A model generated the notes under the pieces. It was not told the DNA's origin and did not search any database. It worked only from the letters and a program-made list of their open reading frames with translations. Both the position numbers and the translations under genes were made by a program. From a virus (lineage: Duplodnaviria; Heunggongvirae; Uroviricota; Caudoviricetes): a DNA stretch of 5,220 nucleotides. Location of the stretch: positions 1-5,220 of IMG/VR virus record IMGVR_UViG_2778261344_000016. One strand, 5' to 3'. Of this stretch, positions 1 through 5,220 are shown piece by piece; within the stretch, counting starts at the first letter, position 1, and every line of letters begins with the position of its first letter.

Positions 1-61
1 GCTGGTAGTGACGCGCCCAGCTCTGAGCCTCAAGACGATCCTGAATGTAATAAGCGTTCAT
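1..61 (-). CDS. gam: Gam (host RecBCD inhibitor), short GamS form; 3' end lies beyond the window start
   Basis: Reverse-strand translation from the ATG at 61..59 reads [20 protein letters not shown]..., matching the lambda GamS N-terminus as I recall it. AGGAG Shine-Dalgarno 7 nt upstream. The upstream GamL-type extension (ATG at 180..178, [18 protein letters not shown]...) is out of frame with this start; see findings. Confidence 0.7.
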
Positions 62-134
62 GGCTGAACTCCTGAAATAGCTGTGAAAATATCGCCCGCG
101 AAATGCCGGGCTGATTAGGAAAACAGGAAAGGGG

Positions 135-278
135 TTAGTGAATGCTTTTGCTTGATCTCAGTTTCAGTATTAATATCCATTTTTTATAAGCGTCGACGGC
201 TTCACGAAACATCTTTTCATCGCCAATAAAAGTGGCGATAGTGAATTTAGTCTGGATAGCCACAAGTGTTTGATCCAT
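135..278 (-). CDS. kil: Kil (host cell-division inhibitor), 47 aa
   Basis: The internal Met of ORF 135..404 gives [47 protein letters not shown], which matches lambda Kil as I recall it. It overlaps the 3' end of cIII by 32 nt, as in lambda. Confidence 0.8.
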
Positions 279-411
279 TCTTTGGGACTCCTGGCTGATT
301 AAGTATGTCGATAAGGCGTTTCCATCCGTCACGTAATTTACGGGTGATTCGTTCAAGTAAAGATTCGGAAGGGCAGCCAGCAACAGGCCACCCTGCAATG
401 GCATATTGCAT
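247..411 (-). CDS. cIII: CIII (FtsH/HflB inhibitor that stabilises CII), 54 aa
   Basis: The internal Met of ORF 247..483 gives [54 protein letters not shown], near-identical to lambda CIII as I recall it. Strong AAGGAG Shine-Dalgarno about 7 nt upstream of the ATG at 411..409. Confidence 0.85.
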   Translation of the reverse strand: MQYAIAGWPVAGCPSESLLERITRKLRDGWKRLIDILNQPGVPKNGSNTCGYPD

Positions 412-483
412 GGTGTGCTCCTTATTTATACATAACGAAAAACGCCTCGAGTGAAGCGTTATTGGTATGCGGTAAAGCCGCAC

Positions 484-852
484 TCAGGCGGCCTTGATAG
501 TCATATCATCTGAATCAAATATTCCTGATGTATCGATATCGGTAATTCTTATTCCTTCGCTACCATCCATTGGAGGCCATCCTTCCTGACCATTTCCATC
601 ATTCCAGTCGAACTCACACACAACACCATATGCATTTAAGTCGCTTGAAATTGCTATAAGCAGAGCATGTTGCGCCAGCATGATTAATACAGCATTTAAT
701 ACAGAGCCGTGTTTATTGAGTCGGTATTCAGAGTCTGACCAGAAATTATTAATCTGGTGAAGTTTTTCCTCTGTCATTACGTCATGGTCGATTTCAATTT
801 CTATTGATGCTTTCCAGTCGTAATCAATGATGTATTTTTTGATGTTTGACAT
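484..852 (-). CDS. ea10: Ea10-like early protein, 122 aa
   Basis: ORF of 122 aa, the same length as lambda Ea10 and in the equivalent position just beyond cIII on the pL transcript. GAGGAT Shine-Dalgarno 8 nt upstream of the ATG. Identity rests on size and synteny; I do not reliably recall the lambda protein sequence. Confidence 0.6.
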   Translation of the reverse strand: MSNIKKYIIDYDWKASIEIEIDHDVMTEEKLHQINNFWSDSEYRLNKHGSVLNAVLIMLAQHALLIAISSDLNAYGVVCEFDWNDGNGQEGWPPMDGSEGIRITDIDTSGIFDSDDMTIKAA

Positions 853-870
853 CTGTTCATATCCTCACAG

Positions 871-897
871 AAAAAAACCGCCCTCACATTAGAGGGC
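871..897 (-). terminator. Intrinsic terminator on the leftward (pL) transcript, upstream of ea10
   Basis: Hairpin GCCCTC / ACATTA loop / GAGGGC at 880..897, followed on the minus strand by a run of seven U (plus-strand A7 at 871..877). Confidence 0.55.
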
Positions 898-1014
898 AAA
901 GAAGATTTCCAATAATCAGAACAAGTCGGCTCCTGTTTAGTTACGAGCGACATTGCTCCGTGTATTCACTCGTTGGAATGAAAACACAGTGCAGTGTTTA
1001 TTCTGTTGTTTATG

Positions 1015-1042
1015 CCAAAAATAAAGGCCGACTATGCGGCCT
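1015..1042 (-). terminator. Intrinsic terminator immediately 3' of the membrane-protein gene
   Basis: Hairpin AGGCCG / 6-nt loop / CGGCCT at 1025..1042, followed on the minus strand by UUAUUUUUGG. It sits 5 nt after the stop codon of ORF 1047..1496. Confidence 0.5.
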
Positions 1043-1046
1043 GAAA

Positions 1047-1496
1047 TTACTTAACCAATGATGCTGCATATTCGATAAGGTAAAGCTTTGGGGCCAGCCA
1101 AATTTTTAACCAAGTCATATTGGTTACTACACCAATAATAAAAATCCCCCACAGAGTCAAAACTCCAACCAATGGCATGATAAGAAGATTAATATCACCT
1201 TTGCTATCCCAAACCATTGTCGGCCTGTATTTGGGATTTCCTTTCTCCCATGAATATCCTTCATCACCGATTTTACCTGTCTCAACTCTTTGGCACTGCT
1301 TCTTCATAAACCAGAAAACCAGTGGGATTGTTAGAATGGCCATTAATGTTTTAATCAGACTGTCAACCATATTCCATAGCAGCAACTGATGAACAACATC
1401 AGGAATCTGTGCCTGGCTAAATGAAACAGCCGCGTCTATTCCATTACTGGCTTTTTGCAGTAGTTCTACGAGAATCTTGTTTGCTTGTTCTTCCAT
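1047..1496 (-). CDS. Small hypothetical inner-membrane protein, 149 aa, two predicted transmembrane helices
   Basis: GAGGTG Shine-Dalgarno 4 nt upstream of the ATG at 1496. Two hydrophobic stretches (LIKTLMAILTIPLVFWFM and INLLIMPLVGVLTLWGIFIIGVV). It lies between N and ea10, where lambda carries sieB and ral. I do not recognise it as any named protein. Confidence 0.6.
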   Translation of the reverse strand: MEEQANKILVELLQKASNGIDAAVSFSQAQIPDVVHQLLLWNMVDSLIKTLMAILTIPLVFWFMKKQCQRVETGKIGDEGYSWEKGNPKYRPTMVWDSKGDINLLIMPLVGVLTLWGIFIIGVVTNMTWLKIWLAPKLYLIEYAASLVK

Positions 1497-1554
1497 ATAT
1501 CACCTCAAATAAGTGGTTTGCTGCCTAATTTCATTTTCTGGCGACCAACACAAG

Positions 1555-1863
1555 TCACCTTGCTGTCAGTTGTTTTGATTTCCTGTAGCCTGCCGCGTAA
1601 AGAGCTACATTTGGAAGACAAATACTTCCACTGCATTCATCGGTATTTTGGTTACGAATGTTGCTGAGTGATATTGCTTTTTCAGAAAGATTTAAATGCT
1701 TTCTCGGATCTTCCTGAACAGGTTCCTCACTGTCTGTGCCGAAGATCGAATCGATGATGTTGCAGATGGAATCACGCTCGATGGCCAGCTTTCTGCGCCG
1801 CTCATGACGGCGAGTTTTGGCATTTCCTGCAAATGTTGATTTTCCGTACACGATTACCGTCAT
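1555..1863 (-). CDS. N: N-type transcription antiterminator, P22 gene 24 type, 102 aa
   Basis: Contains GNAKTRRHERRRKLAIER, the arginine-rich boxB-binding motif of P22 N. I place the start at the ATG at 1863..1861 (MTVIVYGKSTFAGNAKTRR...), which has a GAGGAA Shine-Dalgarno and puts the motif at residues 13-30; the longer ORF beginning at 1947 is probably an artefact. It lies directly downstream of pL and nutL. Confidence 0.75.
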   Translation of the reverse strand: MTVIVYGKSTFAGNAKTRRHERRRKLAIERDSICNIIDSIFGTDSEEPVQEDPRKHLNLSEKAISLSNIRNQNTDECSGSICLPNVALYAAGYRKSKQLTAR

Positions 1864-1982
1864 GATGTTTTCCTCATGTGAAATGGCTTTGGTGGTGATG
1901 CGCAAGATGCTGATCTTCTGGTTGCTGTCGTTGCAGCTGCAATTCACATCACTGCCAAATCCATCTCGTTTGGTATCTGTTC

Positions 1983-2017
1983 GCGCTTTGTCAGCGCACC
2001 ATCGAAGTTAAAGAGCC
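1983..2017 (-). promoter_or_regulatory. nutL site: boxA followed by a P22-type boxB
   Basis: On the minus strand, GCTCTTTAA (boxA-like, plus 2008..2016) is followed by GCGCTGACAAAGCGC (plus 1983..1997), which is the P22 boxB hairpin with a GACAA loop. It sits between pL and N. Confidence 0.7.
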
Positions 2018-2062
2018 TGCCAATCTGTTCCGTTTGGCTGCCAGCGTCCTGCTGATGTGTTT

Positions 2063-2125
2063 AGTATCACCGCTAGTGGTATATGTGTCAACACCGCCAG
2101 AGATAATTTATCACCGCAGATGGTT
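2063..2125 (-). promoter_or_regulatory. OL1-OL2-OL3 operators and pL promoter, lambda type
   Basis: Three 17-bp operators: TATCACCGCTAGTGGTA (2065..2081), CAACACCGCCAGAGATA (2089..2105) and TATCACCGCAGATGGTT (2109..2125). On the minus strand, TTGACA (-35, plus 2086..2091) and GATACT (-10, plus 2063..2068) give the pL arrangement. Confidence 0.85.
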
Positions 2126-2282
2126 ATCTGTATGTTTTTTATATGGATTTATTTTTTTGCAGGGGGGCATTGTTTGGTAGGCGAGGGATCAGAATTGCAC
2201 TGTTTAGCAAGTTGTATCTATCAATTTTTCAATAAATACAATTGGTTATGGTGTTATTAGGTGTGGGGATCGTGAGGCAAAG

Positions 2283-2310
2283 AAAACCCGGCTCGGTGGC
2301 CGGGTTTTTC
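2283..2310 (-). terminator. t_imm-like intrinsic terminator ending the cI-cassette transcript
   Basis: Hairpin CCCGGC / CGGTG-type loop / GCCGGG at 2287..2304, flanked by A-runs and T-runs on both sides. It is at the position of the lambda terminator that follows rexB. Confidence 0.7.
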
Positions 2311-3086
2311 TAGGCTACCAGAGACTCAATCCAAGAGTCTCTGGTATGGAATGGCAACACTCGTGCGGTATCATTAAATAGTAGTGATAGTTGCTGTAGC
2401 TCAGGTGTTAACCCATCGCTGTCAACTATTACAAATCTATTGTTTATGTCAGGAACGACCTGACTTAAGTCAACAATCTTCCCAACTGTTGAGTGGGCAG
2501 TATTCCATCCCTTACTGCTGGCAAGGCTTACCGTAAACCCGCGTTTTGGTGGTATTAGTCGAGACTCATTCCTTAGCGTTAACGGAACAGTAATGTTATG
2601 CCCACTAATACCTTTCACTTTTTCCTTTAAAGCTAGTCGCTTCCCAAGCCCTGCTGATTTTAAGTAGCTGATTACACATTTTTCGAACTTATCGTCTTTG
2701 ATCTCAGCATACCAATCAGCAGTTTGGGCGGATGCAAGAATCCCACCACGAATAACATTTGCAGTTACCTGTCCAACGGACGACTCATCTGCCCACGCAG
2801 ATATCTCTCCAGAGTCATTTAATGAAATTCCTTGCGAAGCGAGCGATGACCTGATTAGATCAATTTTCTTTTTAGTCAGGTGGATGCCGCGTGATTCAAT
2901 ATTCATCAATGTATCGCAGTAGTCTGTAACCCTATACTGACCACTCATCTCTTGAACGAATACACTTATCTGCTCACAATCATCGTAGTATGTGAAGGGA
3001 CTAATAACGCGCAGCAACGTGTCGCTCATTGGGTGGCATTCAAACCCGAGCTTAGATATGACTGTTGAACACGTTACATTTCCCAT
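2310..3086 (-). CDS. Hypothetical protein, 258 aa; distal gene of the two-gene cassette in the rexAB slot
   Basis: Long ORF with no internal stops and no long hydrophobic segment. Its ATG (3086..3084) overlaps the 3' end of the upstream ORF by 13 nt, and it has only a weak Shine-Dalgarno, consistent with translational coupling. No family recognised. Not RexB, which is about 144 aa and membrane-embedded. Confidence 0.65.
   Translation of the reverse strand: MGNVTCSTVISKLGFECHPMSDTLLRVISPFTYYDDCEQISVFVQEMSGQYRVTDYCDTLMNIESRGIHLTKKKIDLIRSSLASQGISLNDSGEISAWADESSVGQVTANVIRGGILASAQTADWYAEIKDDKFEKCVISYLKSAGLGKRLALKEKVKGISGHNITVPLTLRNESRLIPPKRGFTVSLASSKGWNTAHSTVGKIVDLSQVVPDINNRFVIVDSDGLTPELQQLSLLFNDTARVLPFHTRDSWIESLVA
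2316..2346. repeat. Perfect 12-bp inverted repeat with 7-nt loop inside the last codons of the 258-aa ORF
   Basis: TACCAGAGACTC (2316..2327) / AATCCAA loop / GAGTCTCTGGTA (2335..2346). It lies just upstream of t_imm on the minus-strand transcript. Confidence 0.6.
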
Positions 3087-3616
3087 GATAGCTGACCTGA
3101 TTTATCTTGATTAGGTAAAGGTGGGCTGCCTTCATATATGATATTAAGCGCCTCGCAAAAATAATTCCAGTAGCCAAAAAAATCATCTGGCTTGATGTTC
3201 GTTTCAAGCTTAAGTGCAATTTCTTCCCCAGCTGATTCGAAGTACATGTGATAGTGAGGACCTCGAGCCACCTCAACAAAATCTGGATGGTTCACTATAG
3301 ATTTATTACGGTGTGGCTTGTTATCCGCAGGGTACGGGTCAAGCGCGTAAATGCGCCTGTCATGAAGAAACATCACAAATGAAATCTTCACTATATCCAC
3401 CCCTTCAACGATAGGAGGACGCCAGTGAAGCATAAATTTTATGCCTGTGATTGGGTTGCCAATTTCATCAAAAGCTTTGAGATCCAATTTAAACCAGATT
3501 GGGGTTCGTCCCTCACTTCCGGTCCATGTAACTCCGCTAAAAGTTACTTTTTTCAAGCGAGTAATAGCTTGGTCAACCTCTTTCTGGGTAGGCTTAAAGT
3601 CGCCTTTTTTAGCCAC
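3074..3616 (-). CDS. Hypothetical protein, 180 aa; proximal gene of the two-gene cassette in the rexAB slot
   Basis: ORF begins with GTG at 3616..3614 (an in-frame stop lies three codons upstream) with a GGTGA Shine-Dalgarno-like element about 9 nt upstream. It starts 46 bp after the cI stop with no intervening terminator, so it is probably co-transcribed with cI from PRM. No family recognised. Not RexA, which is about 279 aa. Confidence 0.65.
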   Translation of the reverse strand: MAKKGDFKPTQKEVDQAITRLKKVTFSGVTWTGSEGRTPIWFKLDLKAFDEIGNPITGIKFMLHWRPPIVEGVDIVKISFVMFLHDRRIYALDPYPADNKPHRNKSIVNHPDFVEVARGPHYHMYFESAGEEIALKLETNIKPDDFFGYWNYFCEALNIIYEGSPPLPNQDKSGQLSWEM

Positions 3617-3662
3617 TGATTCGTATCACCATGAAAGTTATTGTTAATACCTGTGCTTCTTG

Positions 3663-4379
<717 letters not shown>

Positions 4380-4382
4380 TTA

Positions 4383-4460
4383 AATCTATCACCGCAAGGA
4401 ATAAATATCTAACACCGTGCGTGTTGACTATTTTACCTCTGGCGGTGATAATGATTGCAT
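4383..4460. promoter_or_regulatory. OR3-OR2-OR1 operators with divergent PRM (leftward) and PR (rightward) promoters
   Basis: OR3 TATCACCGCAAGGAATA (4387..4403), OR2 TAACACCGTGCGTGTTG (4410..4426), OR1 TACCTCTGGCGGTGATA (4434..4450). PR -35 TTGACT (4424..4429) and -10 GATAAT (4447..4452). PRM -35 TAGATA and -10 TAGATT on the minus strand (plus 4406..4411 and 4383..4388). Confidence 0.95.
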
Positions 4461-4476
4461 GTACTAAGGAGGTTGT

Positions 4477-4677
4477 ATGGAACAACGCATAACCCTGAAA
4501 GATTATGCAATGCGCTTTGGTCAAACCAAGACGGCTAAAGATCTCGGTGTATATCAAAGCGCGATCAACAAGGCCCTTCATGCAGGCCGAAAGATTTTTT
4601 TAACTATAAACGCTGATGGAAGCGTTTATGCGGAAGAAATAAAGCCCTTCCCAAGCAACAAAAAAACAACTGCATAA
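4477..4677 (+). CDS. cro: Cro repressor, 66 aa
   Basis: Translation [66 protein letters not shown] is near-identical to lambda Cro as I recall it. TAAGGAGG Shine-Dalgarno at 4466..4473. Confidence 0.95.
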
Positions 4678-4684
4678 GTAACAC

Positions 4685-4719
4685 CGCTCTTTATCAATCT
4701 GCACCGCCGACAACGCGGT
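4685..4719 (+). promoter_or_regulatory. nutR site: boxA followed by a boxB-like hairpin
   Basis: CGCTCTTTA (boxA, 4685..4693) followed 9 nt later by ACCGC-CGACAAC-GCGGT (4703..4719), a 5-bp stem with a GACAA-containing loop, which is the P22 boxB type. It is immediately downstream of cro. Confidence 0.55.
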
Positions 4720-4731
4720 AACTAATTAAGC

Positions 4732-4765
4732 ACTCATCGAAAGATGAGTATTAGTGATTATTTAC
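4732..4765 (+). terminator. Candidate tR1-like hairpin between nutR and the cII-like gene
   Basis: 7-bp stem ACTCATC / GAAA loop / GATGAGT (4732..4749) followed by an A/T-rich tract. The U-run is interrupted, so it may be a weak or rho-assisted terminator, as tR1 is in lambda. Confidence 0.3.
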
Positions 4766-4783
4766 CTATGGAAATAGTAAGAA

Positions 4784-5002
4784 ATGGAACAAACAAGTTA
4801 CAGCAAACTATCACAGCGCGACGTTGATCGCGCAGAAACAGATTTACTTATCAACCTGTCAACGCTTACCCAGCGCGGTCTGGCAAAGATGATTGGCTGT
4901 CATGAATCGAAGATAAGCAGAACGGACTGGAGGTTTATTGCTTCGGTCCTGTGTGCTTTTGGAATGGCATCAGACATCAGTCCGATTAGCAGGGCTTTTT
5001 GA
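4784..5002 (+). CDS. CII-like transcriptional activator, apparently truncated at 72 aa by the IS insertion
   Basis: It occupies the cII position after cro and nutR. The segment DLLINLSTLTQRGLAKMIGCHESKISRTDWR resembles the CII helix-turn-helix region (lambda CII has ...GVDKSQISRWKRDW...). The ORF stops at a TGA (5000..5002) that is the first three bases of the IS terminal repeat, and CII-family proteins are usually about 90-100 aa. Confidence 0.55.
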   Translation: MEQTSYSKLSQRDVDRAETDLLINLSTLTQRGLAKMIGCHESKISRTDWRFIASVLCAFGMASDISPISRAF

Positions 5003-5047
5003 ACCGCCCCGGGTTTCCTGGAGTGAACCGCCCCGGGTTTCCTGGAG
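5000..5047. repeat. Two exact tandem copies of a 24-bp IS terminal repeat
   Basis: TGAACCGCCCCGGGTTTCCTGGAG at 5000..5023 is repeated exactly at 5024..5047. The sequence begins with TG and resembles the terminal inverted repeats of the IS629/IS1203/IS3411 group as I recall them. Confidence 0.7.
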
Positions 5048-5065
5048 AGTATTTTATCTGTGAAC

Positions 5066-5220
5066 TCAGGCTGCCAGATCATTATTTCCGATGGAAGCAT
5101 AATAAGCTTTTTCTGCTTCTGCCGGAGGAATATGGCCCAGCCTTTCCAGCAATCGTCGATTGTTATACCAGTCCACCCACGTGAGTGTGGCCAGTTCCAC
5201 TTCTGCACGGTTTTTCCAGC
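5066..5220 (-). CDS. IS3-family transposase (OrfB, DDE integrase core), C-terminal fragment
   Basis: Reverse-strand translation ends ...WKNRAEVELATLTWVDWYNNRRLLERLGHIPPAEAEKAYYASIGNNDLAA with the stop at 5068..5066. This is a typical IS3-family OrfB C-terminus (WVDWYNN.RL....G..PP.E.E motif). It is in a different frame from the listed ORF 4900..5208. Confidence 0.75.
   Translation of the reverse strand, partial: WKNRAEVELATLTWVDWYNNRRLLERLGHIPPAEAEKAYYASIGNNDLAA

Follow-up and report, generated by a model that had tools for sequence, protein, structure and literature searches.

The 5,220-nucleotide (nt) stretch of Caudoviricetes DNA analyzed here (positions 1 to 5,220 of IMG/VR record IMGVR_UViG_2778261344_000016; hereafter the window) carries two overlapping genes, which we call A and B, between the phage repressor gene cI and a terminator resembling lambda t_imm. 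This cassette takes the exact place of rexA-rexB, and the rest of the immunity region is of the lambda type. Modules like A-B are widespread in temperate proteobacterial phages, immediately after the gene for a Cro/CI-type repressor. At slightly better than even confidence, we lean toward reading A-B as a lysogen-expressed exclusion or abortive-infection pair, a function and mechanism that we infer. We favor this reading because there are two computational predictions of defense, because the cassette has been retained in a decayed prophage and transferred between immunity types, and because a DUF1829 domain occurs in the defense system HipAD.

The lambda rex slot is the textbook case of a prophage shielding its host, and finding other lysogen-expressed cargo there is unsurprising to a specialist. 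The locus merits attention because an unrelated two-gene module sits exactly in that slot and because two independent computational screens have already flagged the pair as a defense candidate. What this analysis adds is the exactness of the replacement, the fold assignments, the conserved residues, and a repressor link that is nearly universal among distant phages.

Exact replacement of rexA-rexB

The window is identical to a stretch of the Escherichia coli O103:H2 strain 129 chromosome (1258536-1263755). Its immunity region contains the following features:

2044-2130, minus strand: lambda-type OL operators and PL promoter (-35 TTGACA at 2091, -10 ending at 2063), located by promoter scan and blastn
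2279-2309, minus strand: t_imm-like intrinsic terminator, CCCGGC-N6-GCCGGG plus TTTTCTTT, directly after the B stop; left breakpoint relative to lambda
2310-3086, minus strand: gene B (WP_000528774.1), 258 amino acids (aa), ATG start; N-terminal DUF1828 and C-terminal DUF1829-type domain
3074-3086, minus strand: overlap of the A stop and B start, 13 nt
3074-3616, minus strand: gene A (WP_001074606.1), 180 aa, GTG start; DUF6978-like, divergent
3617-3662, minus strand: cI-A spacer, 46 nt, from the cI stop at 3663 to the A start at 3616; the right breakpoint relative to lambda is the cI stop codon
3663-4376, minus strand: cI repressor, 237 aa, HTH_3 and Peptidase_S24 (Pfam); presumed first gene of the transcript from promoter PRM
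4377-4476, no strand assigned: OR/PRM/PR control region between cI and cro (PR hexamers at 4424-4452, plus strand), located by promoter scan and blastn

By blastn, positions 3663-4691 align to lambda cI through cro at 95.7% nucleotide identity, and positions 2044-2311 align to lambda OL/PL, t_imm, and the last rexB bases at 89.9%. Between the two aligned blocks, positions 2312-3662 gave no lambda match. Because both breakpoints fall at stop codons and the flanks are lambda-like, the replacement of rexB-rexA is exact, stop to stop. The original prediction, made from the letters of the window, held that rexA-rexB had been replaced while cI, its operators, and t_imm stayed in place. The blastn breakpoints agree and extend the lambda-like parts to cro and OL/PL. 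The open reading frames (ORFs) and the sequence likewise bear out the two overlapping genes (180 aa with a GTG start, and 258 aa) that it had placed between cI and t_imm.

A gap of 46 bp without a terminator had also been claimed between cI and the cassette, and we confirmed it: the spacer folds weakly (-5.6 kcal/mol) and has no T-run. The hairpin after B folds at -19.9 kcal/mol (calculated for a 56-nt stretch that contains it), and the t_imm flank is kept in 103 phage records. A consensus terminator scan gave no match at this 2279-2309 hairpin, probably because the flanking A-run and T-run can pair and thereby consume the T tail.

From this layout and the lack of a terminator between cI and A, we expect lysogens to express the pair from PRM, as part of the repressor transcript, in the way that lambda expresses rexAB. 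The cII gene of the prophage is truncated, so PRE should be inactive and should not contribute to expression. The 13-nt overlap between A and B, compared with a 4-nt ATGA overlap in homologues, implies translational coupling. We conclude that positions 2310-3616 are a translationally coupled two-gene operon, A then B, at the 3' end of cI and ending at t_imm.

The slot between cI and t_imm is a site for cargo, and its content varies from phage to phage. In a survey of other lambda-type phages, which the original prediction had proposed, phage 2B8 had an NYN-domain gene there, HK544 two hypothetical genes, BP-4795 three, and AU5Stx1 only a 48-aa ORF; lambda itself has rexAB. Comparison of A and B with lambda RexA and RexB gave a best BLASTP E value of 0.89. 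In a Kyte-Doolittle analysis, neither A nor B has a 19-residue window above 1.6, so both are predicted to be soluble, and neither has a secretion signal or membrane segment. As a prediction, then, the earlier claim that both proteins are soluble and unlike RexA and RexB stands.

Distribution, repressor linkage, and alleles

Outside the window, we recovered 10 enterobacterial phage or prophage loci, and in each of them B follows A immediately, its start codon overlapping the A stop; they came from Escherichia phages, Pantoea, Providencia, Yersinia, Xenorhabdus, Thorsellia, and Izhakiella. A genome-collection scan with a narrower B alignment recovered 8 loci, 7 of them enterobacterial and 1 a 518-base contig labeled Actinomadura. 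In all 7 enterobacterial genome loci, a repressor-like ORF of ∼210 to 280 aa with a helix-turn-helix (HTH)-like N-terminus, judged by eye, lies upstream on the same strand.

This arrangement extends to viral contigs. Scanning IMG/VR contigs with a profile of distant B proteins yielded 46 viral loci, and an A homologue ends at the B start in 43 of them. Among the 41 loci with enough upstream sequence, 36 have an HTH plus S24 repressor no more than 1.3 kb upstream on the same strand, and Pfam confirmed the repressor in 10 of 10 sampled loci. The five exceptions comprise one over-extended A ORF that is an artifact (the repressor match is present), one HTH-only repressor, two loci with an extra Endonuclease_1 cargo gene and a repressor-like match much further upstream, and one unexplained case. 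The viral contigs with the pair have a G+C content of 48 to 63%, indicating that they come from hosts unlike E. coli.

Pseudomonas phage phPA-G, Burkholderia phage phi644-2, and a Helicobacter pametensis prophage carry distant B relatives, 22 to 27% identical to window B. In all three, B comes immediately after, and overlaps, a partner gene of 150 to 170 aa whose product aligns with A and retains the G-x-H-x-H motif. A repressor gene is annotated upstream in phPA-G and the Helicobacter prophage, and none is annotated in phi644-2. Based on a profile search of 1.84 billion representative proteins, we found 213 B clusters, most of the best-scoring ones ∼250 aa long and matched near full length. 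Pairwise identities of A and of B are strongly correlated across loci (Pearson r = 0.98), as expected for co-inherited genes, so this correlation is not independent evidence of an A-B interaction.

Several of these loci have features of their own. In Pseudomonas phage VB_PaD_phPA-G, the A homologue is an unannotated 172-aa ORF (positions 3486-4004 of locus L012, plus strand) in an apparent gap before the DUF1828 gene. Between repressor and A, Providencia and Izhakiella prophages carry a DUF3024 gene (L005, L006, and L010, about 5050-5390), and two viral contigs carry an Endonuclease_1 plus Excalibur gene (L061 and L062, about 2400-3385). The 518-base contig of Actinomadura rugatobispora (L011) spans an A-B junction whose B part is 57% identical to window B over residues 3-101, and it may represent assembly contamination rather than true presence. 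In viral contigs L066 and L067, A and B seemed to be fused into one ORF, but A lies in a different frame there, and both fusions were rejected as ORF-caller artifacts.

Near-constant travel with a Cro/CI-type repressor would be explained if the pair were an accessory of the lysis-lysogeny switch, modulating repressor function, induction, or commitment. Repressor synteny down to 22 to 27% B identity, in the Pseudomonas, Burkholderia, and Helicobacter phages, fits such a role, and RexA, from the same slot, is reported to bias the lambda switch (PMC11077077). However, the same repressor types occur without the pair (lambda and AU5Stx1), near-identical cassettes lie behind different repressors (in E. 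coli, a ∼99%-identical cassette follows two of them), and other cargo (DUF3024 or Endonuclease_1) can separate repressor and A. Shared transcription therefore fits better than a specific repressor partnership, and we regard a switch accessory as improbable.

Within E. coli, the window allele is present in 61 of 5,426 complete genomes, including O104:H4 outbreak strains, with both genes in every case. A sister allele, ∼41% (A) and ∼50% (B) identical to the window proteins, is present in 241 of these 5,426 genomes, including the type strain ATCC 11775, so that one or the other allele is present in ∼5.6% of complete E. coli genomes. The sister allele also occurs in phages ev207, ev017, PhiR63_2, and PhiR57_1 and in one Stx1 phage, and it lies between cI and N in all cases examined. 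PhiR63_2 and PhiR57_1 are said to come from the work of Brenes and Laub in 2025.

A and B are genuine genes. Support for the GTG start of A comes from its MAK... N-terminus, which recurs in enterobacterial homologues, several of them with a GTG or TTG start. RefSeq annotates both genes, and the ratio of nonsynonymous to synonymous substitution rates (dN/dS) for B is 0.06 to 0.10 between E. coli alleles. Compared with E. coli alleles L021 and L022, dN/dS was 0.6 to 0.7 for A and <0.1 for B, from very small counts: 7 to 8 amino-acid changes in A, all within residues 20-109, and 2 in B. Residues 20-109 of A may thus be a faster-evolving specificity region.

The pathogenic lineages among the carriers (O103:H2 and O104:H4) and the expected expression in lysogens would suit lysogenic-conversion cargo with a phage-unrelated benefit to the host, such as stress tolerance, DNA metabolism, or virulence. 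We consider this quite improbable, because the alleles are also carried by commensal, animal, and environmental strains and by the type strain, the pair occurs in phages of unrelated hosts, and the proteins have neither an export or membrane signature nor a metabolic or virulence family match.

Families, folds, and proposed function

B residues 30-112 match Pfam DUF1828 (PF08861) at 40.9 bits, above the gathering threshold of 22. For Pfam DUF1829 (PF08862), window B gave no match at an E value of ≤1, and the full-length B homologues of phi644-2 and the Helicobacter prophage passed the threshold of 22.2 with 23.4 and 29.1 bits. The same domain was assigned by HHpred (98.8%) to a 50%-identical B allele (PMC13092281, Table S5). 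Residues 98-159 of A match Pfam DUF6978 (PF22398) at 23.6 bits, under the gathering threshold of 29.6. Three close A homologues have a precomputed DUF6978 annotation, so A is probably a divergent DUF6978 relative. Both proteins belong to PHROG families of unknown function. Neither matched NCBIfam and, across the profile libraries, neither matched a known toxin, antitoxin, metabolic, or virulence family. The original prediction could place neither protein in a known family. This must be amended for B (DUF1828/DUF1829) and, weakly, for A (DUF6978), and the pair had already been flagged computationally as a defense candidate.

The model of B (predicted local distance difference test [pLDDT] score, 81.9) has two domains. 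The N-terminal DUF1828 domain is predicted to have a type III secretion chaperone-like fold, and the secretion-chaperone fold binds extended peptides. The C-terminal domain is modeled with a restriction-endonuclease-like fold (alpha-beta-beta-beta-alpha-beta core), with which the secondary-structure order of residues 132-257 is compatible. In the 77-sequence alignment of the B family, no acidic or Lys residue on predicted strands 2 and 3 reaches 60% conservation, with strand positions mapped from predicted secondary structure rather than by structural superposition. At the position expected for the strand-3 (Asp/Glu)-x-Lys motif, distant B homologues have Tyr-Ile-Gln/Glu-Pro-Val, as judged by eye. 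Conserved instead in the C-terminal domain are G159-x-S161-G162-H163 (with Lys or Arg as alternatives to His), W194, Y198, G202-K203, D206, and R217, and in the N-terminal domain D36 and D55. This pattern suggests that the conserved patch may be a phosphate- or nucleic-acid-binding site rather than a canonical nuclease site. A search of all PDB chains with the A and B family profiles returned nothing meaningful.

The AlphaFold model of A has a pLDDT score of 86.5. Among 58 unique homologues, R88, H121, H123, and F153 are invariant and K22, W31, D93, H102, N104, N158, P168, and Q175 are nearly so. The R88, H121, and H123 pattern, with D93, H102, and N104 nearly invariant, looks like a metal or catalytic center. 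The last ten residues are disordered in the model yet conserved (G174 and Q175), which may reflect contact with B. We dropped a cupin assignment (H-x-H-x3-E) and a HIT-like assignment, as no cupin and no HIT protein were among the matches listed; for the latter, the third histidine is also unconserved. A beta-beta-alpha arrangement around H121/H123 was suggestive of an HNH/His-Me finger but had no fold or sequence match and was likewise dropped. An ImmA-like repressor protease was rejected because A has no HEXXH motif; the neighboring repressors have their own S24 domain.

A check of both proteins against PADLOC profiles, which the original prediction had advised, matched A to PDC-M24A (E = 3.7e-4, 18.9 bits, residues 98-160 only) and B to PDC-M24B (E = 5.9e-7, 27.3 bits, residues 5-106 only). 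Weak and partial as they are, the two matches follow the gene order of PDC-M24. In other phages, relatives of B align with PDC-M24B over almost its entire length, with E values down to 4.5e-13. A second prediction comes from DefensePredictor, which labels both sister-allele genes "Predicted novel defense gene" (PMC13092281, Tables S5 and S10), with log-odds of 4.9 to 5.4 for WP_001062368.1 and 5.6 to 6.3 for WP_000968518.1 and WP_000968517.1. The DefensePredictor cluster representative for A is the O104:H4 copy, WP_001074607.1 (PMC13092281), which differs from window A at one residue.

In the mechanism that we propose, the A and B proteins would act as a complex, and the pair would exclude superinfecting phages or abort their infection. 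B, whose DUF1829 domain has a conserved patch of Gly-x-Ser-Gly-His/Lys/Arg, Lys, and Arg, would be a regulator or sensor that binds nucleic acid and/or protein A. A would be the effector, with a center formed by R88/H121/H123. Infection would release or activate this effector, by analogy with toxin-antitoxin-type defenses such as HipAD (DS-6). The division of labor, with A as effector and B as regulator or sensor, is the weakest step.

A number of points weigh against an exclusion or abortive-infection function. Our assignment of A as effector and B as sensor is a guess. A has no recognized catalytic fold: structure comparison, suggested for both proteins in the original prediction, matched folds in B (chaperone-like and endonuclease-like), and the fold search found no structural relative of A. 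In B, the canonical PD-(D/E)XK residues are not conserved, making nuclease activity doubtful. The tail of A may just as well be conserved because its codons overlap the ribosome-binding site of B, and the near-constant repressor link could mean a role in the lysis-lysogeny switch. The matches of A and B to PDC-M24 and of A to DUF6978 are weak and partial. PADLOC candidate (PDC) systems are putative and never experimentally verified, and PDC-M63 and PDC-S04 gave no defense in tests (PMC12409345). Among DefensePredictor units, only 45% of those tested gave defense (PMC13092281), and the pair is absent from the 94 tested units in the text version of Table S6 of that study. Searching the literature by family and accession, we found no functional study of the pair.

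A-B could also be a new abortive-infection system embedded in the repressor operon, in which A would be the first of an unseen enzymatic fold (R88, D93, H102, N104, H121, and H123), B would restrain A, and the coupling to the repressor would be functional. Such coupling would serve, for example, a system guarding the lysogenic state against superinfecting or heteroimmune phages. We hold this to be unlikely, although it deserves consideration.

Prophage context and comparison with known systems

The window belongs to a lambdoid prophage and adjoins the prophage integrase, and the surrounding 35-kb region (L001) shows that this prophage is decayed or cryptic. An IS3-family element interrupts exo, and both the terminase and the tape-measure genes carry frameshifts. 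The prophage has also lost, to IS3 insertions, everything from cII up to the terminase gene, where lambda has its genes for replication, late control, and lysis. The repressor gene cI and the A-B pair have stayed intact.

An intact cassette in a decayed prophage is also what might be seen if A-B were an addiction (toxin-antitoxin-like) module that stabilizes the prophage or immunity region and has no primary anti-phage role. Its two small overlapping genes are always co-inherited, A often has a weak GTG or TTG start, and DUF1829 occurs in the putative antitoxin-like partner of HipAD. We nevertheless judge such a module rather improbable, given that neither A nor B matches a known toxin or antitoxin family, that B is large for an antitoxin and has no recognized DNA-binding HTH domain, and that addiction is of little benefit to a prophage once it is integrated. 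Phage defense is itself a function of many toxin-antitoxin modules, so this explanation overlaps with the exclusion or abortive-infection function that we favor.

Other features of the window lie outside the cassette. At 4784-5220, an IS3-family element starting near 5001 leaves cII only 72 aa long, and the 24-nt terminal sequence TGAACCGCCCCGGGTTTCCTGGAG stands twice in tandem at 5001-5048. The N antiterminator (1555-1863, minus strand; Pfam N_peptide) has the arginine-rich motif GNAKTRRHERRRKLAIER. The N region has no lambda match and cI/OR/OL are lambda-type, indicating that the immunity and antitermination modules are mosaic. A 149-aa ORF at 1047-1496 (minus strand) belongs to phrog_3054, of unknown function, and has one or more strongly hydrophobic segments, with a Kyte-Doolittle maximum of 2.45 and, by eye, two likely membrane helices. 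It lies between N and an ea10 homologue, where lambda carries sieB and ral, and based on this position it may be a superinfection-exclusion membrane protein. At 366-424 (minus strand), we detected a match to the Rfam lambda cIII thermoregulator element (RF01804; 88.5 bits).

If A and B do provide defense, a positive result would add a widespread defense family, probably with new effector chemistry, and the plating of therapeutic or typing phages on carrier strains would be affected. Testing the function would be straightforward, since the sister allele is found in phages that can be cultured (PhiR63_2, PhiR57_1, and ev207).

Among known systems, lambda RexA-RexB shares with A-B the slot, the arrangement of two genes on the repressor strand, and the expected expression in lysogens. 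The proteins differ in size (279 and 144 aa for RexA and RexB, 180 and 258 aa for A and B). Unlike RexB, a small membrane protein, A and B both lack hydrophobic segments, and the overlap of their genes, with apparent translational coupling, is a further difference. Compared with the PD-(D/E)XK nucleases Can2/Card1, NgoMIV, PspGI, and NucC, the predicted endonuclease-like domain of B does not conserve the canonical Asp ... (Asp/Glu)-x-Lys residues, and Gly-x-Ser-Gly-His, Lys203, and Asp206 are conserved instead.

PDC-M24 resembles A-B in having two genes adjacent on one strand, with the match to its A component preceding the match to its B component. It is a putative PADLOC candidate system whose components window A and B match weakly and partially. 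The DefensePredictor pair WP_001062368.1/WP_000968518.1 (PMC13092281) is the sister allele itself, in the same slot in ev207, PhiR63_2, and ATCC 11775, and is a defense system by prediction only. HipAD (DS-6) is a validated E. coli defense system. It differs from A-B in its partner protein, a HipA-like kinase rather than a DUF6978-like protein, and in the N-terminal domain of its second protein, DUF3037 rather than DUF1828. That second protein, DS-6B, carries DUF1829, the type of domain at the C-terminus of B, and is proposed to bind its partner and DNA.

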